This document shows positions 37,376 to 62,878 of a stretch of DNA of 64,000 bases, in pieces (within the stretch, counting starts at the first letter, position 1; the number at the start of each line of letters is the position of its first letter). Made by a program: the position numbers and the translations under genes. The notes under the pieces were generated by a model. It searched no databases and was not told where the DNA came from. It was given only the letters and a program-made list of their open reading frames with translations. Source of the stretch: Microcoleaceae cyanobacterium (lineage in GTDB: Bacteria > Cyanobacteriota > Cyanobacteriia > Cyanobacteriales > Microcoleaceae); the NCBI GenBank assembly GCA_051652765.1, contig JBOFUV010000115.1:1-64000 (forward strand). Direction: 5' to 3'.

Positions 37376-37579
37376 TTTTTTCTCTGTTAAATTTTCAACA
37401 ACACTTTCAATCTCTATGATAAACCTTTAGCTGTCTTAAGGTTCACAATCTATGGAAGAACCCGGTTAACACAGACTTTCTGGATTGGATGTCTTAGCAG
37501 TGTGTGGGTTGCCTAGAAATCTTGTTTCCTTGCCTTGTTAGAAATAGACAAAATTGATTGAGATCATGGGCCGCAAGAC

Positions 37580-37695
37580 TATAACGATCCTAAGTCAATC
37601 ATGAGAGATCTTAAAGAGGGGTTTGGGGACGAAGTCCTCAAGGAGGGAGCAACACCCCTTCTACCCCTTCTCACAAATCATTTGAGATTGCTATA
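37580..37695 (+). mobile_element. ~116-bp MITE-like element, copy 1
   Basis: Imperfect terminal inverted repeats TATAACGATCCTAAGTCAATCATGAGA / TCTCACAAATCATTTGAGATTGCTATA; internal hairpin TTGGGGAC-GAA-GTCCTCAA; second copy inverted at 62671-62787. Confidence 0.7.
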
Positions 37696-37924
37696 CAAGC
37701 AGAAAAGATTATGGACAGACCACTCGTTACATCCGTCAGTTTCATAAATTCTTTGACTCAATCTGATAAAGGGAATAGTGCAATAAACGTTCCTCTATAT
37801 GACTAATTTGCTCCCCGAACCCGAGCCCTACCGTTCTCCTGGGCTTCCGTTATACTCAAGTCAACTAAAAGTTTTGGGTTCGTGCAAATATCAAGGCACG
37901 AAGTATTTGAGCAAGGGGAACTGT

Positions 37925-38641
37925 ATGGATGAACAACGTCTAGAAACATTAATTTTTGAGTTATGCCAATCCGAACCTGGAAGCAACCACCGCCGAAAAT
38001 GCTTCAGCAGATTGATCATCTCAATCCAGAAACATCCAAAGCTCTACCGCTCCTGTCATGAAGATTATCCAGAAGCCCAGAACCTCACCTGGGAGTGGGC
38101 GTTCAAAAATATCGATGCCTTTGAACCCCGGTCTGCCTCCACCGTTGACAGCTTTTTAGTTTGGATTAATGGTTATCTGAAATGGCGCGTTCGAGATCTC
38201 TTTGCCCCAGACTCCAAATACCACGATGAGACTTCTCTGGATCAGCCTGTTGGTTCCTCAGAAGATCCAGTCACCCTTGGAGATCTGCTCCCTGGACGGT
38301 TCCGGAACGATCTGGACGACCTGATCGAGCAAGCACAACAGGAACAACGGCATCGCCTCGGAGAAGCCATCTGGGACTATATCGAACACGATCCAGAGCA
38401 CAAGCTAAAACACTGCCACCTCCGCGATCATCCAGACTGTAACGCCCAAGTGCTAGCCATTCGACTATTGCTCAAAGATCCACCCCAACGGATTCGAGAT
38501 CTTGCTAGAGAGTTTGAGATCAGCGATCAAACTCTCTATAGTCACTGGAAGAGAAAGTGCATACCTCTATTGCAAAGTATTTCCCAAAGTATTTCCCAAA
38601 GTATTTCCCAAGATCTTGCCCATCATTCTGGAGAAATTTAG
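37925..38641 (+). CDS. Sigma70/ECF-like RNA polymerase sigma factor
   Basis: Sigma2-like 'YPEAQNLTWEWAFKNIDAFEP...FLVWINGYLKWRVRD', 'SLDQP', and C-terminal HTH 'IRDLAREFEISDQTLYSHW'; start at MDEQRL with AAGGGG upstream. Confidence 0.75.
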   Translation: MDEQRLETLIFELCQSEPGSNHRRKCFSRLIISIQKHPKLYRSCHEDYPEAQNLTWEWAFKNIDAFEPRSASTVDSFLVWINGYLKWRVRDLFAPDSKYHDETSLDQPVGSSEDPVTLGDLLPGRFRNDLDDLIEQAQQEQRHRLGEAIWDYIEHDPEHKLKHCHLRDHPDCNAQVLAIRLLLKDPPQRIRDLAREFEISDQTLYSHWKRKCIPLLQSISQSISQSISQDLAHHSGEI

Positions 38642-38643
38642 CC

Positions 38644-39642
38644 ATGAATTCCACTCAATCTGAAGCCTTAACCGTGTTGTTGGAAAAGCACGCCCATACG
38701 TTTGCCAAACGATTTGCCTCAGAACAGGCCAACCCTCAAAAAGGCAAACAAGTTTATCTCAATACTTTAGCCGTTTACGCCGTCCATTCCTATCTCAAAT
38801 GGTTGGATATTAAAACGAATTTGGATCGTGGAGAAAGCTGGAATGCTGGCTTGAGAGCGACTTTTAATGTTGCTGATTTGGTTCTTCCGGGTGTGGGCAA
38901 ATTAGAATGTTGTCCGGTGTTATCCGGTGATGAAATTTTAATGATTGCCGATGAGGTTCTAGACGATCGAATTGGCTATGTTGTTGTTCAATTTGATGAT
39001 GATTTAAATCAAGCTCAACTGTTAGGATTTGTTCCTAATAGAAAGCTCTCTCAACCGCCTAAACCCATTCCCTTGAATCATTTACAATCCCTGGATGAAT
39101 TAATTGACACGATTGCTTGGCATGAACGTTGGGCAAAACTCTGGGGTACATTGGAGAAGTGGCAACCTGCTGAATTGCTCTACGCTCAATCCATGGGTGC
39201 CAGATTTGCTAATAAGCTAGCGAGTTCACCGACTCGAGCCACCGGAATTCGTTCTGCTTTATCTGAACGCAGTATTACCCGAGGGAAGTTAGTGACGCTT
39301 AGATCTGAATCGGCATCTGAGATCTCTTCTTCCTTGGATTTCCCTACGTTTGACTCCACACTAAATGAGGATCAAAACCTGCTTTTGACTCTCAGTGTGA
39401 GCGATCGCTCTCTGGAAGAAATTGATATTAGTTTGCGAATTTATCCCTATGGAGAAGTTGAACACCTCCCTACTGGGTTGCAAATTGCGGTGATTGATGA
39501 AACTGGAACCCCTCAAATGAATGCCCAAGCGCGGGATGCTGATGATTGGATTCAGTTAGAGTTTAGTTGTCAGCCGGATGAAACCTTTAGTGTGCAGATC
39601 GACCTAGGAAATCAAACCTTGATTGAGCAATTTACAGTGTAA
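38644..39642 (+). CDS. DUF1822 family protein (putative anti-sigma / protease substrate)
   Basis: Motifs 'VYLNTLAVYAVHSYL', 'ADLVLPGVGKLECCPV', 'DRIGYVVVQF', 'LPTGLQIAVIDE' and 'WIQLEFS...FSVQI'; begins 2 bp after the sigma stop. Confidence 0.8.
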   Translation: MNSTQSEALTVLLEKHAHTFAKRFASEQANPQKGKQVYLNTLAVYAVHSYLKWLDIKTNLDRGESWNAGLRATFNVADLVLPGVGKLECCPVLSGDEILMIADEVLDDRIGYVVVQFDDDLNQAQLLGFVPNRKLSQPPKPIPLNHLQSLDELIDTIAWHERWAKLWGTLEKWQPAELLYAQSMGARFANKLASSPTRATGIRSALSERSITRGKLVTLRSESASEISSSLDFPTFDSTLNEDQNLLLTLSVSDRSLEEIDISLRIYPYGEVEHLPTGLQIAVIDETGTPQMNAQARDADDWIQLEFSCQPDETFSVQIDLGNQTLIEQFTV

Positions 39643-39666
39643 ATTCATTAAACCTATGTCAAACTT

Positions 39667-42378
39667 ATGCCAAATTCATCCTCAAATTCACTACTCAATT
39701 CACCTGCGAATTCTCTCCCAACGACCATTAAACTAACCCTATTTTGGAATAGTAGTAAATCTCAATTTCGGGCCAGACTGACCACTAATGACGGCAGTTT
39801 TAACACCCAGAGCGGTTTCTTGCCCAAGTTTCCCTCAGAACTAGAAACGGCGTTGAGAAGTTGGCGGGAAGTCTATTCCGAGCTTCCCCAGATTCGGCTT
39901 AAAAGTAAAGGCGTGACCCATGCTCCCGATTCAAATGCCCATCAACAAGCAAAGGTCTATTTAAATCAGATCAAAGCTCTGTTGAATACCTGGCTAGATG
40001 GTAGTGATCAAGATTGGCAACCGATCCGAGAGACTTTGATCAAGGCTTCTGGTCAATTAGGAGAACAGGCCCATTTCTTGGTTGAGATTGAAGATCAAGA
40101 TGAAATTGGCCAGCTTCAGCCTCTCTCGCCTTTGTTACGGCGCTTGCCCTGGCAAGAGTGGAATTTGTTTAAACATCATTTTCCTCACGCTGAAATTGTC
40201 CTGCGGGTTGAAGGCAGTAGCGGAAAACTGAAACCGTTGCCACAGTTAAAACCCAGAATTTTAGTCGTATTTGGAGACAATGATGGCATTGACCTGACTC
40301 CTGATCGGCAAGTCATTCAAGTTCTACAACAGCAGGGAGCAGAGGTTAAGCTCCTGGAGCAACCCAGCCATGACGAACTTTCAGAGGCCCTCAGATCAGA
40401 CCCTGGGTATCACATCTTTATTTTTTCAGGCCATAGTCGCAGTGATAGCAAGGGTTCTATTGGCTGGCTGGAACTCGGGGCTAACCGATCATTGGAAATC
40501 CATAGCGATGGCTTTAGTCGAGCCTTCAAGCAAGCGGTGAACCAGGGACTACAGCTCGCAATTTTCAATTCTTGTGATGGGATGGGATTGGCCAATCAGA
40601 TGGCTAAAGTCGGGCTGCCCCGCAGTATTGTCATGCGGGAAGTGGTTCCCAATGAGGTTGCCGCCAGTTTTTTGAAATATTTTTTCAAGGAATTTGCCGG
40701 AAAGCATCACGCCCTTGTGCCCGCTTTTCATCATGCCAGGGAACAGCTCGAAGACTGTCATTATGATAGCCCCTACCCCGGAGCCACTTGGTTGCCTAGC
40801 CTATGTCTGCAAGATACCGTTGCGGCTCAGTCTCTATTCTGGCAAGATTTGATCCTGCAGCAACCCTTCTCCCGATTTCCAGGATATTTGAGGTTAGGAA
40901 TTTTAGTGCTGGTTCTTTTGGGTCTGGGGTTAAGTTTAGGATATTGGCAACTCAAATCGAAGTCTAAAGAGATTTCCAAGTCAGTTTCCTCCCCACTGTC
41001 AAACTCCAAACTTTCAAACTCCAAGCCACCGATTGATCAGCTTATTAGCCAGGGCGAACGCTTGTTAATTTCAAGCAACACGAATCCAGCTAAAGACGCA
41101 GGAATTCGGGCTTATTCTACCAAGAACTATGGGGAGGCAATTCAACAGTTTCGGCAAGCACTGAAGGCCAATGTCAATGATCCTGAAACTTTGATTTATT
41201 TGAATAATGCGATCGCTGAGCAAAAAATGGCAACAAATACTGGCAAAGTATTTGAAATTGCCATTAGCGTCCCGATTAAAAATGAACCCAATGTATCTCA
41301 GGAAATGTTACGGGGAATTGCTCAGGCTCAAACTGAACAAAATTGTGGTCAATCCAGTCAACAAATCAGCCAAGTCTTACAGGCTAATTTTAATTGCTTA
41401 GGGCAAAATAGTACCTTTGTAAAAGTTACAATTGGAGATGACGAATATGAACCAAATGTAGCCGAAAAAATAGCTGAATCTTTCGTTCAAAATCCAAATA
41501 TTTTAGGAGTAATTGGTCATCATTCCAGCGACATGACCTTAAGAGCCGGGGCAATCTATGAAAAACATCAGTTAGCTGCAATTTCTTCAACTAGCACTTC
41601 TATCCGGATTTCTAACTTTAACCCCTATGTTTTCCGAACCGTTCCCAATGATACTATTGCCGCTCAAAGCCTGAAAAATCATCTTGAAAGTACTCTCGGA
41701 ATGGGAACCAAAGTGGCTGCTGCCTACGTTCCCAATAATGCCTATAGTGACTCTCTCACTCAAGAATTTTCTAGAGTTAGCGCCCAACCTTTTGTTCATG
41801 AGTGCGACTTATCCACCAGTAATTTTAATGCGGCAGATTGTTTGACCAAAGCTCAACAAAAAGGAGCTAAAGCATTACTGTTAGTTCCAGCAACAGATCG
41901 TTCTCTATCCGAGGCAATTCTGGCAATTACAAACAATAATGGTCGTCTACAATTATTAGCAGGTGACTCAGTTTATAGTCCCAAGATTTTACAAAATTCA
42001 GGTCAAAATGCAGTTGCTGGAACGTTAACAGTTGCGGTTCCCTGGCATCGCAGTGAACAGTCCAAATTTGCTCAACAAGCCGAACAATTCTGGCAAGCTG
42101 CTGTAAGTTGGCGGACTGCAACCACCTATGACGCTACTCAGGCTCTGATTCATGCCATCAATCAGTGCGGCAATAGTTGTCATCGTCGGCAAGTGCAGCA
42201 AATTCTTTCTAGTCCTGATTTCTCCGCCGAAGGGGCAACCGGAACCGTTGAATTTGAACCGTCGGGCGATCGCAAATTGACCTCCGACGAACTTAGTGTT
42301 TTAGTTCAAGTCAAGCCCCGCTCAACCGAAAGCTTAGGAACAGGAACAGATTATGAGTTTAGGCGAGTCGAACCGTAG
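39667..42378 (+). CDS. CHAT protease - TM - TPR - LivJ-like (branched-chain amino-acid-binding family) periplasmic domain fusion
   Basis: CHAT motifs LRRLPWQEW, IFIFSGHS (His codon 40432) and IFNSCDG (Cys codon 40573); TM 'LGILVLVLLGLGLSLGYW'; TPR 'NYGEAIQQF...DPETLIYLNNA'; binding-protein motifs 'EMLRGIAQAQ', 'ILGVIGH', 'VFRTVPND'. Confidence 0.85.
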   Translation: MPNSSSNSLLNSPANSLPTTIKLTLFWNSSKSQFRARLTTNDGSFNTQSGFLPKFPSELETALRSWREVYSELPQIRLKSKGVTHAPDSNAHQQAKVYLNQIKALLNTWLDGSDQDWQPIRETLIKASGQLGEQAHFLVEIEDQDEIGQLQPLSPLLRRLPWQEWNLFKHHFPHAEIVLRVEGSSGKLKPLPQLKPRILVVFGDNDGIDLTPDRQVIQVLQQQGAEVKLLEQPSHDELSEALRSDPGYHIFIFSGHSRSDSKGSIGWLELGANRSLEIHSDGFSRAFKQAVNQGLQLAIFNSCDGMGLANQMAKVGLPRSIVMREVVPNEVAASFLKYFFKEFAGKHHALVPAFHHAREQLEDCHYDSPYPGATWLPSLCLQDTVAAQSLFWQDLILQQPFSRFPGYLRLGILVLVLLGLGLSLGYWQLKSKSKEISKSVSSPLSNSKLSNSKPPIDQLISQGERLLISSNTNPAKDAGIRAYSTKNYGEAIQQFRQALKANVNDPETLIYLNNAIAEQKMATNTGKVFEIAISVPIKNEPNVSQEMLRGIAQAQTEQNCGQSSQQISQVLQANFNCLGQNSTFVKVTIGDDEYEPNVAEKIAESFVQNPNILGVIGHHSSDMTLRAGAIYEKHQLAAISSTSTSIRISNFNPYVFRTVPNDTIAAQSLKNHLESTLGMGTKVAAAYVPNNAYSDSLTQEFSRVSAQPFVHECDLSTSNFNAADCLTKAQQKGAKALLLVPATDRSLSEAILAITNNNGRLQLLAGDSVYSPKILQNSGQNAVAGTLTVAVPWHRSEQSKFAQQAEQFWQAAVSWRTATTYDATQALIHAINQCGNSCHRRQVQQILSSPDFSAEGATGTVEFEPSGDRKLTSDELSVLVQVKPRSTESLGTGTDYEFRRVEP

Positions 42379-42592
42379 AACAGAAATTTCTTGAGAGCAG
42401 CGCCTTGAATTTTAAATATTCTGCCTTCGTAACGTTTCTAACCTCGGTTTCCACGATAAACTAAATTTATGATCATCAGATTAAAACTGAGCGCAACGAC
42501 CCATTGTCTGAACTTTGTCTGAACCCTAAACATGATCTGGCTGACTCCAATCGAATGAACTCCCCACCCACTTTAAATACAATTCAGTTTGT

Positions 42593-43222
42593 ATGGAAAC
42601 TGTCAGAATCAAGCTCAGACGCTCTTTAGAATCTGGATTCTTAGTCACCCTTTATTGTCAAATTAAGCAACAAGTCAAGGAAATTGAGGGTTTTTTGCCC
42701 CTACCTCCAGAAGAATTGCAACACTCTTTTGATCATTGGCAATGTGCCTACCGACAAATTGAAGCAGTTCGTCAGCAGGTAGACTTTCGCCTAACTGCAA
42801 AAAGAGTTGAGTTTGGTTGTTCTCTCGCAGAAGTCGAGAATATTAAAACTCATCTTAATCAATGGCTAAATGCTCATAGTCCGGGTTGGCAAACGATTCG
42901 AGATTGTCTGATTCAGACCTCTGCTCAGTTGCATCCAGATATCCAAGTTATCCTAGATGCAAAAGAGCCTGAACTGCGGCGTTTACCCTGGCAAGAATGG
43001 GATTTATTAGAAACCTACTACCCCAAAGCAGAGGTCGTTTTAAGCATTTCTAGAACCCAAAGCAGAGGTACTACTCAACCTGCTTTGCATCGTCTCAAAA
43101 GTCATCATGCACGAATTTTAGTTGTCGTTGGACAGAGTGAAGGAATTAATACTGCATCTAAAGCTTTATTAGAAACTAAAGGCTTACACGCTGGAGCCTT
43201 GCAAGTCAAAAATGTCCCCTAG
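42593..43222 (+). pseudogene. Truncated CHAT-protein paralogue (N-terminal part only, no catalytic His/Cys)
   Basis: Aligns by eye to both neighbours through 'LNQWLN', 'LRRLPWQEWDL' and 'RILVVVG..EGIN', then diverges and stops 22 codons later. Confidence 0.7.
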
Positions 43223-43294
43223 GGAATGTCCTCTAGGGACAGAGTAATCTGGAACCAATTAGAACTTAGAAAGATATTAGAGGAAACGGGAAAT

Positions 43295-45472
43295 ATGTCA
43301 ATTGTAAAACTCGAATTGGATGATGGCCCAGAACAAGGTTATCGATTGAATTTAACATCTCTTAGATCAGAGCACTTTGAGTCAACCAAGAGCAATCTTC
43401 CAGCACTGACAAAGGATTTAAACGAATCATTTGAAGATTGGCGAAGTGTTTACTATAGTTCGGATTCTGTTCGGAAAATGAATCCAGGGTTTAAGCCTAA
43501 AGGAATTAAGCAATCAAGTTCCCAGGCTCGCGATAAAGTCAAAAACAACCTGAATCAATGGCTTAACTCAGGAAATGATAGTCGATGGCAACATTTTCGA
43601 GAAGAGTTGATTTTACTATTGAATCGCTCCAAAGAATCCGATGAAGAAATCCAAATCTTATTGGATGCTGAAGACCTCGATCTCAGCCGTTATCCCTGGC
43701 AAGAATGGGATCTGTTAGAATCTCGCTTTCCTCAAGCTGAAATTGCAATTCGAGTTCGGGGTAAAGGGTCTAATAAAATTCGGCCAATTGTCAAGGCTCC
43801 TAAGGTCAAAATCTTGATGGTAGAAGGTGAAAACGGTGGATTGGATACTCATCTTGATGTCGAAGTGATTAGAAGCCTAGAAGCACGAGGAGCAGAAGTT
43901 AAATGTCTATCTCAACCCACTCGCGAGCAACTTTCGGAAGCATTTTTAGAGGAAGATGGATATCACATTTTCATTTTTTCTGGCCATAGTCGAAGTGATA
44001 AAAATGGCAAAATTGGTTGGATCGGATTAAAAAAAGATGATGAATTATCTATTGATGAGTTTAAAAGAAATTTCAGGGTTATGATTGATCGAGGATTACA
44101 ACTGGCAATTTTTAACTCCTGTGATGGTTTGGGATTGGCTCATCAGTTGGCAGAGCTAAATCTGCCCCAATGTATTGTGATGCAAGAACCTATTCCTGAC
44201 GAGGTTGCAGTTAAGTTTTTAAAGAACTTTTTCGACGAATTTACTCGAAATAAATCCTTGTTTGCGGCCATGCATCGAGCCAGAACTGCCTTGGAAAGCT
44301 TTGACAATTCTAAGCAATACCCAGGGGTAGTTTGGTTGCCAACATTGTGTACCCGAGAGTCGGCTTTAGATGATCCTTTGACTTGGGAAAAGCTGATTAA
44401 ACCGGAGACCCAACCTGATCCTTTCCCTGACCCTGAGCCCAAGCGCAAAAAATGGCCGTTTGCAATTTTGGGAGTTCTGGCTGCGGGTTTGATTGGCGGA
44501 ATTGTCTATTCTATAGCTCCTGTTTCTGCGCCAAAGTCATGCCCAACCCAAGCTGTTAAGGTACCACGGGGGCTGAATGGAGATGAATGTCTGGCCTATG
44601 TTAGTGTTCCGAGTGGCAGTATTTTGCATGGGGGCAGCACAACTTGGGCTCCGATTCGAGACAAGATTAACCCAAAAATTGAAACCATTCATCCCCAATT
44701 TAAACTCACGTATCAGCAACCCTCTGGCCAAGCTCCAGGGTCGGGCACCGGGATTAATATGCTCATCAAAAATCAGATTTCTTTTGCTGAATCGTCTCGT
44801 TCCCTTTTACCCGAGGAGGTTCAGGCTGGAAATGCCCAGGGATTTTTGCTGAAATCTATTCCAGTTGCGATTGATGCGATCGCCATTGTGGTTCATCCCA
44901 GTCTTGAGGTAAAGGGATTGACTGTGGAACACCTGCGAAAAATTTACCGGAGTGAGATCACAAACTGGAATCAAGTTGGAGGGCCAGATTTACCGATCAC
45001 CCCCTATTCCCGTCCCCTTGAGAGTGGCACAACAGAGTTCTTCAAGGAAAATATCTTGGGTAATCAGGCATTTGGTACAAACGTCATCAGCGTCCCCACA
45101 ACCACAGATGCCATTCGCAAGCTCAGCCAAAACAAGGGTGGAATTTACTATGCAACGGCTTCGGAGGTGGTCTCGCCCTGCGGTGTCAAGCCTTTACCAA
45201 TTCAATCCAGTGCCGCTAGCCCTCTAGTTGCTCCCTATCAAGAACCTCTAATTCCTCCTGGTGAATGTCCTGGAAAGCGCAACCAACTGAATGTAGCAGC
45301 ATTTCAAGAGGGTCAATATCCCGTCACTCGTCGGATTTTTGTCATTGTCAAGCAGGACGGATCAGTCGATGAAAAAGCTGGAGAAGCCTATGCTAATTTG
45401 TTACTAACCAGTGAAGGACAGAAGTTAGTGAAAGCAGCAGGATTTATTCCGATGCGTTCAACAGATGAATAA
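43295..45472 (+). CDS. CHAT protease - TM - PstS-like phosphate-binding domain fusion
   Basis: YPWQEWDL, IFIFSGHS (His codon 43985), IFNSCDG (Cys codon 44120); Pro-rich linker and TM 'WPFAILGVLAAGLIGGIVY'; PstS-family motifs GGSTT, GSGTG, SSR, VAIDAIAIVVH, SGTTEFF, YPVTRRIF; start at MSIVKLEL. Confidence 0.85.
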   Translation: MSIVKLELDDGPEQGYRLNLTSLRSEHFESTKSNLPALTKDLNESFEDWRSVYYSSDSVRKMNPGFKPKGIKQSSSQARDKVKNNLNQWLNSGNDSRWQHFREELILLLNRSKESDEEIQILLDAEDLDLSRYPWQEWDLLESRFPQAEIAIRVRGKGSNKIRPIVKAPKVKILMVEGENGGLDTHLDVEVIRSLEARGAEVKCLSQPTREQLSEAFLEEDGYHIFIFSGHSRSDKNGKIGWIGLKKDDELSIDEFKRNFRVMIDRGLQLAIFNSCDGLGLAHQLAELNLPQCIVMQEPIPDEVAVKFLKNFFDEFTRNKSLFAAMHRARTALESFDNSKQYPGVVWLPTLCTRESALDDPLTWEKLIKPETQPDPFPDPEPKRKKWPFAILGVLAAGLIGGIVYSIAPVSAPKSCPTQAVKVPRGLNGDECLAYVSVPSGSILHGGSTTWAPIRDKINPKIETIHPQFKLTYQQPSGQAPGSGTGINMLIKNQISFAESSRSLLPEEVQAGNAQGFLLKSIPVAIDAIAIVVHPSLEVKGLTVEHLRKIYRSEITNWNQVGGPDLPITPYSRPLESGTTEFFKENILGNQAFGTNVISVPTTTDAIRKLSQNKGGIYYATASEVVSPCGVKPLPIQSSAASPLVAPYQEPLIPPGECPGKRNQLNVAAFQEGQYPVTRRIFVIVKQDGSVDEKAGEAYANLLLTSEGQKLVKAAGFIPMRSTDE

Positions 45473-46389
45473 TCCCCAGACTGAGCATAAATACACTGAG
45501 CATAAACATACTGAGCATAAACACTCTGTCTGAACGGTCTGAATTTTACGGTTACTGTTTCCTAATAACTTCGGTTCATAACTTCGCTTCAAAGAGTTGT
45601 TCGCTAAACTAGTTGTTCGCCAAACTAGTTGCTTGCCAAACCAAAGACAGACAATACCAGGAATCTAATCCATTCTGCTGGGGATTGCTAAGATTAGTGA
45701 ACTCTTCTCCTCAATAAATTAAGGCGTTCTAGCGCCATTGCTATAAAAATTAACAAAATTCTGAGCCAAAGTTATTTTGAGTATTTTTACTTATCTTTTT
45801 GTCCCGGCCTTCACTGGGATATGACCCGTAGTCTCAGCTTCAACACGACATCGCATTTTACGGCCTGATGATCTTTTAAAACCCAGGGAAACGGTCTGTC
45901 AAGATTGAAACCTCGTGGAAAAGGGCACTACATTTCCCAAGGAGTTCAGATCAAAATCTGATGCCGGAGGACAACATTGTGCTGCCGCCAATTGTTCATG
46001 CAGCCTGAAATATTCATTTTTACTTTTGTCACTCTTTTTATACAAAAAGTTATTCAAAGTCTTTAAAAAATCTATAAAAACAACTGAGATTCAATAAAGC
46101 CGCTTAGGATACCTCAAGTAAACTATAAAAAACTCTGAAGCCCTTTTAAATACCATTGCATTCCATGACCCTCTTTCTTTTCCTCAAGACTCAGACCATA
46201 ATGCTGATCAACGAAAGGAAATCAAAGAGACTTTTTCCGAGGAACAAGTGTTGAACTTCCCCAAGTTCAGGGTTTCTGTTCCCATCCAACAGGTCAATAC
46301 CTTTTCAACAATCGCTGTAATAACGGTTTGACAAAAGACGATTTGACAAAAGACGATTTGACAAAAGTTCGACTTAGGAGAAACGCACT

Positions 46390-47291: not shown

Positions 47292-48257
47292 ATGGCATTT
47301 TTCAAGGATTTTACTGGTTCTCTCAGAGACAAATGGCTGCAGTACTACCAGGTCAATAGGGACTGGATTGTGATGCAGATGGAGCTCAACCCAATCAAAA
47401 CTCCTGATGGAGGTCGCAGACCTGCCTCCGCTCTCATTTTGGGCACGATTAACGCGCTAGAGCCTGAAGCAGCGCAATTGATGATCCCCTTTTCTCAACT
47501 GAATCCCGACCCAGAGAGACTCATTGAGGTATTGGGACTAAATTTTGATCCTGATTTGGCCTTAGGGACTGATGGTATTCAGGTACCATCTCCTAGAATA
47601 GCCCTCAGTTCTCCTCCTCCCGTTCAGAAACCTTCGGCAACAGCCGTCTTGACAACTCCAGTCATTGAGGACGTACCTGTTCTAGTCGATGAAGACTTAG
47701 GCATGGACGATGACTTGGATGTAGCCCTGGATGAGGATGAAGACTTAGGCATGGACGATGGCCTAGATATGGGTCTTGATGCCGAAGGGGATCTGGCCAT
47801 GGACGACGACCTCGACATGGATCTCGATGAGGATGAAGACGATCTGGCCATGGACGATGACCTCGACATGGATCTCGATGCCGAAGGGGATCTGGCCATG
47901 GACGATGACCTAGATATGGATCTTGATGAAGACGATCTGGCCATGGACGATGGCCTAGATATGGATCTTGATGTCGGAGGGGATCTGGCCATGGACGATG
48001 ACCTCGACATGGATCTCGATGTCGAAGGGGATCTGGGTTTAGAGGATTCTGGCTCAGATGATCTCGGAGATTTAGACCTTGGGGATCTAGGAGATCTTGG
48101 AGATGATGACCTCGGGGATTTATCTTCAGATGACTTGGACGAACTTAGTCTGGATGATTTAGGGCAAGTCACAACGGGTGACTTGGATGACATTGATTTG
48201 GCAGGATTGACAGACTCCCTGGATGAGGATGATGACTTTTCTCTAGACCTGAAGTAA
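47292..48257 (+). CDS. DUF5331-like protein with a long Asp-rich repetitive tail
   Basis: N-terminal 'KWLQYYQVNRDWI...GGRRP...LNPDPERLIEVLGLNFDPD'; tail of DLAMDDDLDMDLD repeats. Confidence 0.75.
   Translation: MAFFKDFTGSLRDKWLQYYQVNRDWIVMQMELNPIKTPDGGRRPASALILGTINALEPEAAQLMIPFSQLNPDPERLIEVLGLNFDPDLALGTDGIQVPSPRIALSSPPPVQKPSATAVLTTPVIEDVPVLVDEDLGMDDDLDVALDEDEDLGMDDGLDMGLDAEGDLAMDDDLDMDLDEDEDDLAMDDDLDMDLDAEGDLAMDDDLDMDLDEDDLAMDDGLDMDLDVGGDLAMDDDLDMDLDVEGDLGLEDSGSDDLGDLDLGDLGDLGDDDLGDLSSDDLDELSLDDLGQVTTGDLDDIDLAGLTDSLDEDDDFSLDLK
47686..48040 (+). repeat. Coding tandem repeat, ~48-54 bp units GATCTGGCCATGGACGATGACCTCGACATGGATCTCGAT...
   Basis: About seven imperfect copies visible in both DNA and protein. 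Confidence 0.85.
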
Positions 48258-52011: not shown

Positions 52012-52216
52012 ATCGCAATCCTAAACCAATCCTGAGAAAACCAAACAGGGGTTTGGGGCCAAAATCCCCAAGAAAGGCAACGCTCCATTGCCCAAATCAT
52101 TTGGGATTGCCATACCGTCAAATTTAACGATAAGTTTACTACCCAATTTACAGGCCATTCTTGAACAACCATGAAAGAATAGGACTTAGGACTTACGATA
52201 CCAACAGACGTTAAAC

Positions 52217-62670: not shown

Positions 62671-62787
62671 TATGGCAATCTCAAATGATTTGTGAGAAGG
62701 GGGCATTGCCTTGGCCACCCCCTTCTTGGGGACGAAGTCCCCAAACCCCTTTCTAAGATCTTTCAGGATTGATTTAGGATTGTTACA
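62671..62787 (-). mobile_element. ~117-bp MITE-like element, copy 2 (inverted relative to copy 1)
   Basis: Reverse complement TGTAACAATCCTAAATCAATCCTGAAAGATCTT...CCCCTTCTCACAAATCATTTGAGATTGCCATA aligns end to end with 37580-37695. Confidence 0.7.
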
Positions 62788-62878
62788 GAGAAGAATATAA
62801 GGGCAAGCTCACGTCGCCCCTGCGGGACAATTTAAACTTAAAGTCTGACAAAAATCATCCATAACAATCCTCAAAACC

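Follow-up and report, generated by a model that had tools for sequence, protein, structure and literature searches.

A candidate receptor-protease, anti-sigma and sigma factor relay encoded by a five-gene array in a Microcoleaceae cyanobacterium

We examined a 64,000-nucleotide stretch of DNA from a Microcoleaceae cyanobacterium (assembly GCA_051652765.1, contig JBOFUV010000115.1, positions 1 to 64,000 of the forward strand; called the window below), in which five + strand open reading frames (ORFs), at 37925-38641, 38644-39642, 39667-42378, 42593-43222, and 43226-45472, form one array. The source is a near-complete cyanobacterial genome (5.04 Mb in 158 contigs, 99.97% complete). The interpretation we favor, to which we give a little better than an even chance, is that the array encodes a receptor-protease/anti-sigma/sigma relay resembling HetF-PatU3-sigmaHetZ and gated by small molecules outside the cell. 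The first gene would encode the sigma factor, the second, a DUF1822 protein, its anti-sigma factor, and the third and fifth, CHAT1 and CHAT2, membrane-bound CHAT (caspase-like) proteases with outer binding domains; the fourth ORF is a short relative of these. A preliminary description of this DNA had listed the five co-oriented genes with gaps of 2 bp between sigma and DUF1822 and 24 bp between DUF1822 and CHAT1, and all were found so.

In the proposed relay, DUF1822, made together with sigma, would clamp sigma2 and the helix-turn-helix of sigma4 through its N-terminal domain, as predicted by modeling. Two single-pass receptors, each with a predicted cytoplasmic CHAT domain and a periplasmic Venus-flytrap domain, would respond to ligands for which we can name candidates only from the relatives of these domains; a change in ligand occupancy, whether gain or loss, would activate the protease. 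CHAT would then cut DUF1822 after an arginine in its linker and so remove the immunoglobulin (Ig)-like C-terminal domain, the N-terminal fragment would, by analogy with known systems, be degraded by housekeeping proteases, and the freed sigma would transcribe first its own operon and then a small set of targets from the sequence TCATAAA-N14-CWGATA.

The first gene (37925-38641, + strand) encodes a 238-residue protein which, judged from its predicted fold, is a divergent factor with sigma2 and sigma4 domains, like those of the extracytoplasmic function (ECF) group, and without a sigma1 or sigma3 domain. Its frame is open from 37799, and homologues start at the position equal to 37925. The AlphaFold2 model, built from 40 sequences, had a predicted local distance difference test score (pLDDT) of 81 and contained two helical domains, sigma2 at residues 1-96 and sigma4, with its helix-turn-helix, at about 130-225, and a low-confidence loop at 96-128. 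When the model was searched against 48,161 chains, the best match was sigma2 of SigW (Z 9.4, root-mean-square deviation [rmsd] 2.2, 81 residues aligned, a single Z value for a helical bundle being modest evidence), the first 30 rows were all sigma factor entries, and residues 124-230 matched sigma4 of SigL, SigH, and SigE. Foldseek also placed sigma factors in its top rows, the best at E 4.8e-3 and none at E 0.001. Profiles gave less: Pfam returned weak helix-turn-helix matches and no sigma match, the best NCBIfam match was SigF at a weak E of 0.026, and a sequence search of the PDB returned nothing significant. The identification therefore rests on fold rather than on profiles, with both halves of the protein pointing to the same family, and to that extent the sigma-like factor of the preliminary description is upheld. 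Because the protein did not match the sigma70 family profiles (Pfam r2/r4 and TIGR02937; one paralogue hits Sigma70_r2 below the cut-off), we call it ECF-like and place it in no ECF group. The stretch SLDQP...TLGDLLP at residues 104-124 resembles what we take to be a sigma3.2 finger, which would explain the weak SigF and SigH profile matches. HetZ was considered as an identity and rejected: the profile NF037963 matched three other genes of the genome and none here, and hhalign gave a probability of 0.3%. A 12-nt tandem repeat at 38573-38620 gives sigma the C-terminal tail SQSI-SQSI-SQSI; the same position holds a comparable IAQE repeat in a decayed copy of the gene from a sister genome.

The second gene (38644-39642) encodes a DUF1822 protein (Pfam PF08852, E 5e-65). 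Its model, from 60 sequences, had a pLDDT of 85 and showed an alpha/beta domain at residues 1-183 (38644-39192, + strand), a linker, and a beta-sandwich at residues 210-331 (39271-39642, + strand). The N-terminal domain has a PD-(D/E)XK-like fold, with middling matches to I-Ssp6803I (Z 7.6, rmsd 3.0, 118 residues aligned), NhoI (Z 6.8), and Hjc (Z 6.5); D78 and E88 are invariant, but the lysine of the PD-(D/E)XK motif is missing (E88-C-C/R). The beta-sandwich gave middling matches to generic Ig-like domains (best Z 7.9). When sigma residues 1-225 and DUF1822 were modeled together, the complex scored 0.81 (runs of 0.81, 0.83, and 0.80), against 0.01 for the best of three controls, so that the sigma-DUF1822 binding put forward earlier has a predicted structural basis. 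For comparison, scores at this mark were obtained for 116 of 157 solved complexes and for 2 of 215 mismatched pairs, counts that are rough for a pair with its own alignments. The runs shared at least 84% of contacts, with partner pLDDT of at least 74. Contacts on sigma fell at residues 19-61, 126-153, and 178-224, including recognition-helix residues 201, 205, 208, and 209; those on DUF1822 all fell within residues 7-158, leaving the linker and the beta-sandwich free. We propose from this model that the N-terminal domain is an anti-sigma-like clamp lying over the polymerase- and DNA-binding faces of sigma. The fold matches of the N-terminal domain contained no anti-sigma factor, and recall of a solved complex by the prediction is therefore less likely, though possible.

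Between the two DUF1822 domains lies a disordered linker (39193-39270, + strand; pLDDT below 50 at residues 194-206) in which the candidate CHAT cut site is I-R203-S, at 39250, with R198 and R187 as alternatives. Arginine was present in all 60 linkers compared, and the pattern hydrophobic-Arg-[STGA] occurred in 41 of the 60, relative to a mean of 13.5 and a maximum of 25 in 1,000 shuffles, a difference that overstates its significance since the linkers are Arg-rich and the sequences, being related, are not independent. The earlier suggestion that DUF1822 is cleavable thus gains a plausible site, by computation. The free C-terminal domain may serve as a protease-docking or stability module. In three loci that have TPR-CHAT proteases, DUF1822 is 253 residues long and the beta-sandwich is replaced by a helical-looking tail that follows a T-R-E word, so that in these three cases the tail changes with the type of protease. 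A free domain that varies in this way fits docking as well as it fits cleavage, and together with the low-confidence loop of sigma itself (96-128) it lends something to an explanation that we consider improbable though worth keeping in view, namely that DUF1822 is an uncut anti-sigma factor or adaptor whose Ig-like domain ties sigma to the receptor, that the protease has another substrate (sigma, the tail of a receptor, or a protein encoded elsewhere), and that control is by sequestration of sigma at the membrane and its release. The disordered linker with its universal arginine and its enriched hydrophobic-Arg-small motif, which mirrors the HetF site of PatU, argues instead for the relay with DUF1822 as substrate.

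HetF cleaves PatU3 after Arg117 (PMC9457339), and PatU3 is 258 residues long (PMC13342950). Among PatU relatives a conserved arginine was present in 118 of 120; in the 106 for which its distance from the end could be measured, the median was 141 residues, equal to that of R117 in PatU3 (258 minus 117). The genome has a PatU of its own, encoded behind hetZ and elsewhere than this operon. In the ESM Atlas, with DUF1822 clusters left out, the DUF1822 C-terminal domain led to PatU in its top three rows (0.76), and PatU led back to DUF1822 (0.86, 185 shared features); these are leads only. Alignment of the two C-terminal regions by hhalign gave scores of 15.3, 20.2, and 27.2, rising with profile depth and mostly constant in register; the best pair had a probability of 46% and a pairwise E of 2e-4, and its 27.2 compares with a maximum of 19.9 for 40 column shuffles and 11.5 for the reversed profile. 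Other results tell against homology: P varied with profile choice (0.05, 0.006, 0.03, and 2e-4), a mixed profile scored 16.1 and was exceeded by 1 of 60 shuffles, and HMMER detected no DUF1822-PatU homology in either direction. The N-terminal domains of DUF1822 and PatU do not align, and none of 120 relatives of the PatU C-terminal region carries the DUF1822 N-terminal domain. On balance, homology of the two C-terminal domains seems to us about as probable as its opposite, as far as these sequences can tell. The divergent DUF1822 subfamily was tried as a bridge to PatU and rejected (hhalign scores of 13.6 and 17.0). A broader reading, which we hold tentatively and think rather unlikely to be right in full, is that DUF1822 is a large family of PatU-related cleavable anti-sigma factors cut at hydrophobic-Arg-Ser, with HetF-PatU-HetZ as one branch of the "receptor caspases". 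If it were true, swappable periplasmic sensors, shared with receptor Ser/Thr kinases, would control unrecognized sigma factors, and this operon would provide phosphate and amino acid sensing, independent of PhoR/SphS, through TCATAAA-N14-CWGATA. A PatU-type domain also ends three proteins of 720-894 residues (P0365, P0391, and P0412), so PatU occurs in fusions as well.

CHAT1 (39667-42378, + strand) consists of an EACC2-type pre-CHAT region, the CHAT domain (Pfam, residues 216-370, E 1.5e-9), a transmembrane segment (residues 406-424, 40882-40938), one TPR-like hairpin (residues 479-509, weak at E 0.03-0.06), and a LivJ/ANF-type binding domain at 41239-42375 (Peripla_BP_6, residues 585-874, E 1e-20; ANF_receptor also matched). 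CHAT2 (+ strand) has the same pre-CHAT and CHAT parts (CHAT, residues 210-362, E 8e-12), a transmembrane segment at residues 412-430 (44459-44515), and an S-type PstS-like domain at 44612-45454 (PBP_like_2, residues 464-729, E 1e-34), residues being numbered from 43226, where the ORF opens; its orthologue starts at the position equal to 43295, so that translation probably begins there and the gene spans 43295-45472. The catalytic dyads FSGHS and FNSCDG, which had been noted in both full-length genes, are in place at His256 (40432) and Cys303 (40573) of CHAT1 and at His254 (43985) and Cys299 (44120) of CHAT2. In 71 relatives of at least 400 residues, xGHS was found in 70 and FN-x-CDG in 68, two of the other rows giving another site and one none.

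Past the protease domain, a single hydrophobic segment is present in each full CHAT, CHAT2 having a second, weaker one (539-557) inside its binding domain, and a hydropathy heuristic, which is not a signal-peptide predictor, found no hydrophobic N-terminal stretch in either protein. Among the same 71 relatives none had a hydrophobic N-terminus and 69 had a transmembrane-like segment, before which Lys and Arg were more numerous than after it in 54, equal in 9, and fewer in 6. In CHAT1 itself the bias is reversed, with 1 Lys/Arg before the segment and 3 after; its orientation is therefore assigned from the family bias and from the lack of a signal peptide, not from its own charges. The topology predicted from these features, with the protease in the cytoplasm and the sensor in the periplasm, agrees with the one assumed at the outset.

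The outer domains point to small-molecule ligands. Of the best 120 of 802 matches to the TPR plus LivJ ectodomain of CHAT1, 60 were fused to CHAT, 41 to Ser/Thr kinases, and 3 to peptidase C14 domains, with 16 fused to none of these; by its distribution, the ectodomain appears to be a mobile receptor module, and the kinase fusions bear out the view that it is a receptor part. Its best solved relatives are amino acid binding proteins (E 2.5e-15), and the ligand of CHAT1 is probably an amino acid or amide. For the PstS-like domain of CHAT2 the best PDB match was Synechocystis Sll0540 (9L8J, E 5e-21), and the domain scored 153.9 bits against TIGR02136, whose cut-off is 206.6. Aligned to PstS structures, it keeps the S-type phosphate-site motifs GST, GS, SSR, and R-x4-GT, and S471, T472, S523, S524, R525, and G601 were invariant in all 45 aligned domains, with R596 and T602 present in 43; some of these are phosphate-contacting residues in PstS. 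The CHAT2 outer domain is probably a low-affinity sensor of phosphate or another oxyanion. Sll0540, itself of the S type, has weak affinity for phosphate; it is not encoded in the pst operons, and no role is known for it (PMC13614923). Its weak binding and small response to phosphate limitation (PMC13614923), together with the finding that the isolated, soluble HetF CHAT domain cuts PatU3 without any signal (PMC9457339), suit a relay that is not gated by a small molecule at all, in which the outer domains would serve to dimerize or localize the receptor or to bind a protein partner or a polymer of the cell wall, with a protease that is constitutive or set by its expression. We give this explanation a low probability: no variation was seen in the phosphate-contact motifs of the 45 domains, and the place of the sensor is filled interchangeably by three unrelated ligand-binding folds.

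Nor do the binding domains appear to belong to transporters. No permease or ABC ATPase was recognized among the ORFs that flank the operon in the window, as named from their translations, and all 49 related loci with enough sequence for one lacked it within 2.5 kb downstream on the same strand, in line with the earlier remark that no transporter genes accompany these domains; a single PHO4-family phosphate transporter was found downstream among the 49. Databases do label these proteins ABC substrate-binding proteins, and the genome encodes a stand-alone, membrane-anchored PstS-like protein 56% identical to the CHAT2 outer domain (L010:3470-4453, G000:C47; L, G, and C numbers are our handles for loci, genomes, and contigs), beside which no permease ORF is evident. 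With the nuclease-like fold matches of DUF1822 (Z 6.5-7.6), such facts could be read to mean that DUF1822 is a DNA-binding co-activator, or that the binding domains feed transporters encoded elsewhere and the link to sigma is mere co-regulation. This we regard as very improbable, since the predicted contacts on the sigma4 recognition helix and sigma2 helices fit occlusion, ABC genes are missing from all 49 loci, and the intact dyads would be left unexplained.

The fourth ORF (42593-43222, + strand, 209 residues) had been described as a truncated CHAT. It is a remnant, as that label implies, of which only the N-terminal pre-CHAT domain is left; it has no CHAT match, and dyad, transmembrane segment, and sensor are lost. 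It aligns to the N-terminus of a 795-residue CHAT, transmembrane, and PBP_like_2 receptor in a sister genome (L011:13607-15991), DNA similarity to which is confined to 42589-43152, and it is what a deletion has left of a third receptor. In another sister genome, the intact locus lacks the gene of this stump. Within the genus, loci carry three receptors (the first split into two ORFs), two, or two and a stump. At the junction of stump and CHAT2 (43212-43240) stand two tandem near-palindromes (TGTCCCCTAGGGAA / TGTCCTCTAGGGACA), possibly the scar of a deletion. In two other loci (L174:8301-9881 and L032:6300-7772) a transmembrane-TPR-LivJ protein with no protease domain lies between two CHAT receptors and could be a co-receptor or decoy.

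To place the operon among its relatives, we used the best 80 of 195 loci found, one genome per species, a sample that leans toward close kin. DUF1822 was the next gene after sigma in 80 of 80 loci, a linkage far beyond chance, and 64 of the 80 had a CHAT of the same EACC2 type starting no more than about 1.1 kb downstream, a few of these being fragments or cut by a contig end; the conserved linkage of the three families that had been expected is thus observed. The remaining 16 comprised four that end within 800 bp, three with a 1,600-residue TPR-CHAT, one with a CHAT 7 kb upstream, and eight without CHAT in the DNA examined. Among the 67 of 78 CHAT-type matches that had a tail of more than 60 residues, the sensor was PstS-like in 44, LivJ-like in 17, and CHASE2 in 3, with 3 unmatched. 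We propose that a single sigma takes its input from several receptors, and that these are freely acquired, exchanged, and lost. Such quick turnover within one genus is also what a conflict system might display, and one was proposed for this gene set by Kaur et al. (2021; PMC8195603), whose tails elsewhere include STAND, WD40, or kinase domains. There, a sensor would detect an invader or damage, the caspase would cut itself in the EACC2 region, and sigma would drive defense or cell death; DUF1822 would bind sigma and need not be a substrate. We think a self-activating immunity system of this kind unlikely for the present operon, because nutrient-type binding domains make up 61 of the 67 tails, the residues of the phosphate site do not diversify but stay invariant, and the proven CHAT relays cut an anti-sigma factor in trans (PMC9457339, PMC10028731).

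A candidate for the promoter of the relay was found from word counts upstream of 45 sigma genes, which brought out TCATAAA. In the window the motif reads TCATAAA-N14-CTGATA (37742-37768, + strand), with putative -35 and -10 boxes and 16 nt between CATAAA and GATA. CATAAA-N15-17-GATA occurred within 500 nt upstream of sigma in 36 of 81 regions (the window and 80 loci), with the 16-nt spacer in 34, compared with a mean of 0.36 and a maximum of 2 in 200 shuffles and with 3 on the antisense strand. Among 27 distinct sites the central spacer was only 31% identical, and carriers fell in separate clades (29 of 60 rows, with 6 changes on the sigma tree), which argues for selection on the two boxes rather than mere descent. 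The site at 37742-37768 is the best in the genome, though it was part of the training set. ECF sigma factors usually autoregulate (PMC7826278), and for this reason we read TCATAAA-N14-CWGATA as a candidate promoter of this sigma, used for its own expression. A second conserved word, GTTAnACTCA (37849-37858, + strand), was found in 16 of the 81 regions, where it precedes the start by 63-126 nt, a count made without a control. We take the main motif to be akin to the sigma28 boxes TAAA and GCCGATAA. A genome-wide regulon was sought and not obtained, strict matches numbering 2 at the right spacing and 0-1 at other spacings; a site before a 5-oxoprolinase gene was set aside, as it lies against a repeat of mobile appearance and as none of the four other genomes with that gene has such a site upstream of it. 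One lead is a site before a 197-residue gene on contig C38. In a related locus (L174:12508-18530, G161:C195), three extra copies stand directly downstream of the operon, preceding two paralogous membrane-protein-like ORFs without a Pfam match and a short ORF, all candidate local targets. A set of 26 matches with a 15-nt spacer proved to be mostly the reverse strand of the DUF1822 codons for YLNTLAVYA, a coding artefact. One of this kind lies at 38755-38780 on the - strand, where the reverse complement mimics the motif and points back into the sigma gene, as it does in 22 of 80 loci; it is probably a coding coincidence and possibly an antisense promoter. A scan for sigma70 promoters and terminators stayed at chance level (14 against 14.3).

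Several of these results weigh against the relay as we have drawn it. The earlier idea of a one-step release is doubtful, because the predicted contacts lie at DUF1822 residues 7-158, upstream of the linker; if the model is right, cutting the linker would spare the part that holds sigma and would not itself free sigma, and a second degradation step is probably needed. PatU3 is undetectable when HetF is present (PMC9457339). The site itself is uncertain, the linker count being inflated and three candidate arginines making the linker of this DUF1822 an atypical one. As the HetF CHAT domain is active alone, gating by the outer domain is unestablished even in the precedent. In eight loci CHAT is absent from the DNA examined, and in one it lies 7 kb upstream, so sigma and DUF1822 can exist as an independent pair. 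Of the 81 upstream regions, 45 lack the promoter motif, including nearly all of those from Nostocales despite the same sigma2 and sigma4 motifs, and counts for a regulon in relatives were close to those of a reversed-pattern control, as the genome-wide counts were close to theirs. Cleavage, ligand gating, release, and promoter use are proposed steps; folds, topology, and the binding of sigma to DUF1822 are predicted; and the genes, their domains and dyads, the linkage, and the conservation of the motif are observed.

The preliminary description knew of no characterized example of this exact architecture, while allowing that one might exist; its novelty is not borne out. Kaur et al. (2021) described EACC2 plus caspase genes with variable small-molecule-binding tails and, in most neighborhoods without TRADD-N, an ECF sigma and DUF1822, and from computer analysis proposed stimulus-driven autoproteolysis ending in transcription (PMC8195603). 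Like their set, the operon has a probable N-terminal alpha+beta domain and a caspase-type domain, a variable C-terminal sensor with a transmembrane segment, and a neighboring ECF-like sigma and DUF1822; it has every feature of that set that could be compared, EACC2 having been checked indirectly, in that their label EACC2+CASPASE+CHASE2+TM+TM is the architecture of the CHAT-CHASE2 paralogues that share the pre-CHAT part of the operon proteins. This 200-residue part is common to those paralogues (E 8e-44 over residues 49-395). The accounts differ in that Kaur et al. took DUF1822 for a TPR protein, which neither Pfam nor our model bears out, the protein here modeling as a nuclease-like domain, a linker, and an Ig-like domain; and in that they placed an autopeptidase in a conflict setting, whereas here DUF1822 is the predicted clamp on sigma and the proposed substrate. 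The terms "PBP" and "periplasmic" do not occur in the main text of that paper, nor "PBP" in its Figure 3 data file, though these sensors may fall under its phrase "several small-molecule-binding domains". The architecture was, then, already predicted in 2021; what is added here is the anti-sigma interface, the cut site, the promoter, the ligand candidates, and the possible link to PatU.

A membrane CHAT that cuts an anti-sigma factor is likewise on record. HetZ is a sigma of the ECF type inhibited by PatU3 (PMC13342950), which makes HetF-PatU3-HetZ a characterized membrane-CHAT/anti-sigma/sigma relay. In Anabaena PCC 7120, HetF is, like the operon proteases, a single-pass membrane CHAT with a periplasmic C-terminal part (PMC9457339, PMC13342950, PMC8406250); its soluble anti-sigma substrate is cut after Arg and co-transcribed behind an atypical ECF-type sigma, the gene order of the operon being alike (PMC13342950, PMC9457339); and the bipartite promoter of that system has a 16-17 nt spacer (PMC13342950), the operon motif one of 16. 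The region of PatU3 after the cut site is a possible homologue of that of DUF1822. The two systems differ in that HetF carries TPRs on its outer side, works at the divisome, and is encoded apart from hetZ-patU, whereas the operon has ligand-binding domains outside and encodes its own proteases; in addition, the operon sigma has 238 residues and HetZ about 390, with insertions i1-i3. Orthology of CHAT1 and CHAT2 to HetF was rejected, with 28.6 and 36.2 bits against the NF045509 cut-off of 1200, another gene of the genome scoring 827.6; a hetF-like gene and hetZ-patU are present in the genome away from the operon. The operon is thus like HetF-PatU3-HetZ in its way of working and is no member of it. 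In type III-E systems, Csx29-Csx30-CASP-sigma, a CHAT cuts the anti-sigma once, the N-terminal domain alone binds sigma, release is proposed to need further degradation, as for DUF1822 here, and sigma motifs lie within the locus, as in the operon (PMC10028731). Csx29, however, is a soluble TPR-CHAT activated by RNA-bound Cas7-11, with a defense output and no membrane receptor (PMC10028731), where the operon has membrane receptors with an N-terminal CHAT; no ORF of Cas7-11 size adjoins the operon between 30 and 52 kb of the window, no dedicated cas search having been made. The sensors share fold and binding-site motifs with S-type PstS (Sll0540, 9L8J) and with LivJ-family proteins, and differ from them in being fused through one transmembrane segment to a cytoplasmic protease, without transporter genes. 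In the literature covered, which leaves out most subscription journals, we found no experiment on a sigma-DUF1822-CHAT operon, and the term CHAT is absent from the available text of the ECF re-classification and of a survey of cyanobacterial sigma factors.

If the relay exists, cyanobacteria run a class of phosphorylation-free receptor-proteases beside two-component systems and receptor kinases, and both the origin of the heterocyst switch HetF-PatU3-HetZ and the gating of such proteases, HetF among them, would be explained. The operon is a good test case, with candidates named for its ligand (phosphate), the cut site, the anti-sigma interface, and the promoter. An E. coli system carrying Anabaena RNA polymerase has been published (PMC13342950). 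A ligand-gated membrane protease with a swappable sensor is also a possible part for synthetic biology.

Of 151 genomes sampled from the phylum, 89 gave a DUF1822 match, about half of these being weak matches to the N-terminal domain in small genomes. The present genome has seven copies, the other six each beside a sigma-like ORF where inspected, and the promoter motif was not found upstream of any of those six pairs. It holds about nine CHAT receptors, several of them CHAT-CHASE2, three of which are not beside a sigma-DUF1822 pair. A second subfamily pairs divergent DUF1822 proteins of about 400-490 residues with sigma-like proteins of 450-500 residues (L005, L007, and L127, at G000:C74, C113, and C106, and L124-L140), often with CHAT-CHASE2 and DUF928 after them and near two-partner secretion genes. 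In small genomes of the phylum (1.7-2.3 Mb; L142:4122-6908 and L143:4108-7272) a protein of about 1,000 residues has the DUF1822 N-terminal domain alone at its start; no sigma or CHAT profile matched near these proteins, the one of L142 had no Pfam match at E 0.001, and both may bear on the origin of the domain. A sister genome carries a second, decayed copy of the operon (L193:4730-5990, G151:C59), in which the promoter motif and DUF1822 are kept, sigma is reduced to a short tail, and CHAT is gone; the intact copy in the same genome, on C51, has a CATAAC variant of the motif.

The operon is flanked by genes that we take, from their translations, to be a divergent plastocyanin/cytochrome c6 pair on one side and chlL on the other. 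Between the plastocyanin gene and the promoter motif lies a dispersed, mobile-element-like repeat of about 118 bp (37578-37697), with 49 further blastn pieces in the genome, many copies in both sister genomes, and further copies in the window near 52018 and at 62671-62788. The spacer between the operon and chlL contains two short 15-nt tandem arrays (45477-45528 and 46323-46367), and a DUF5331 gene at 47292-48257, between chlL and chlN, encodes a long acidic repeat tail with units of the DDDLDMDLD type.

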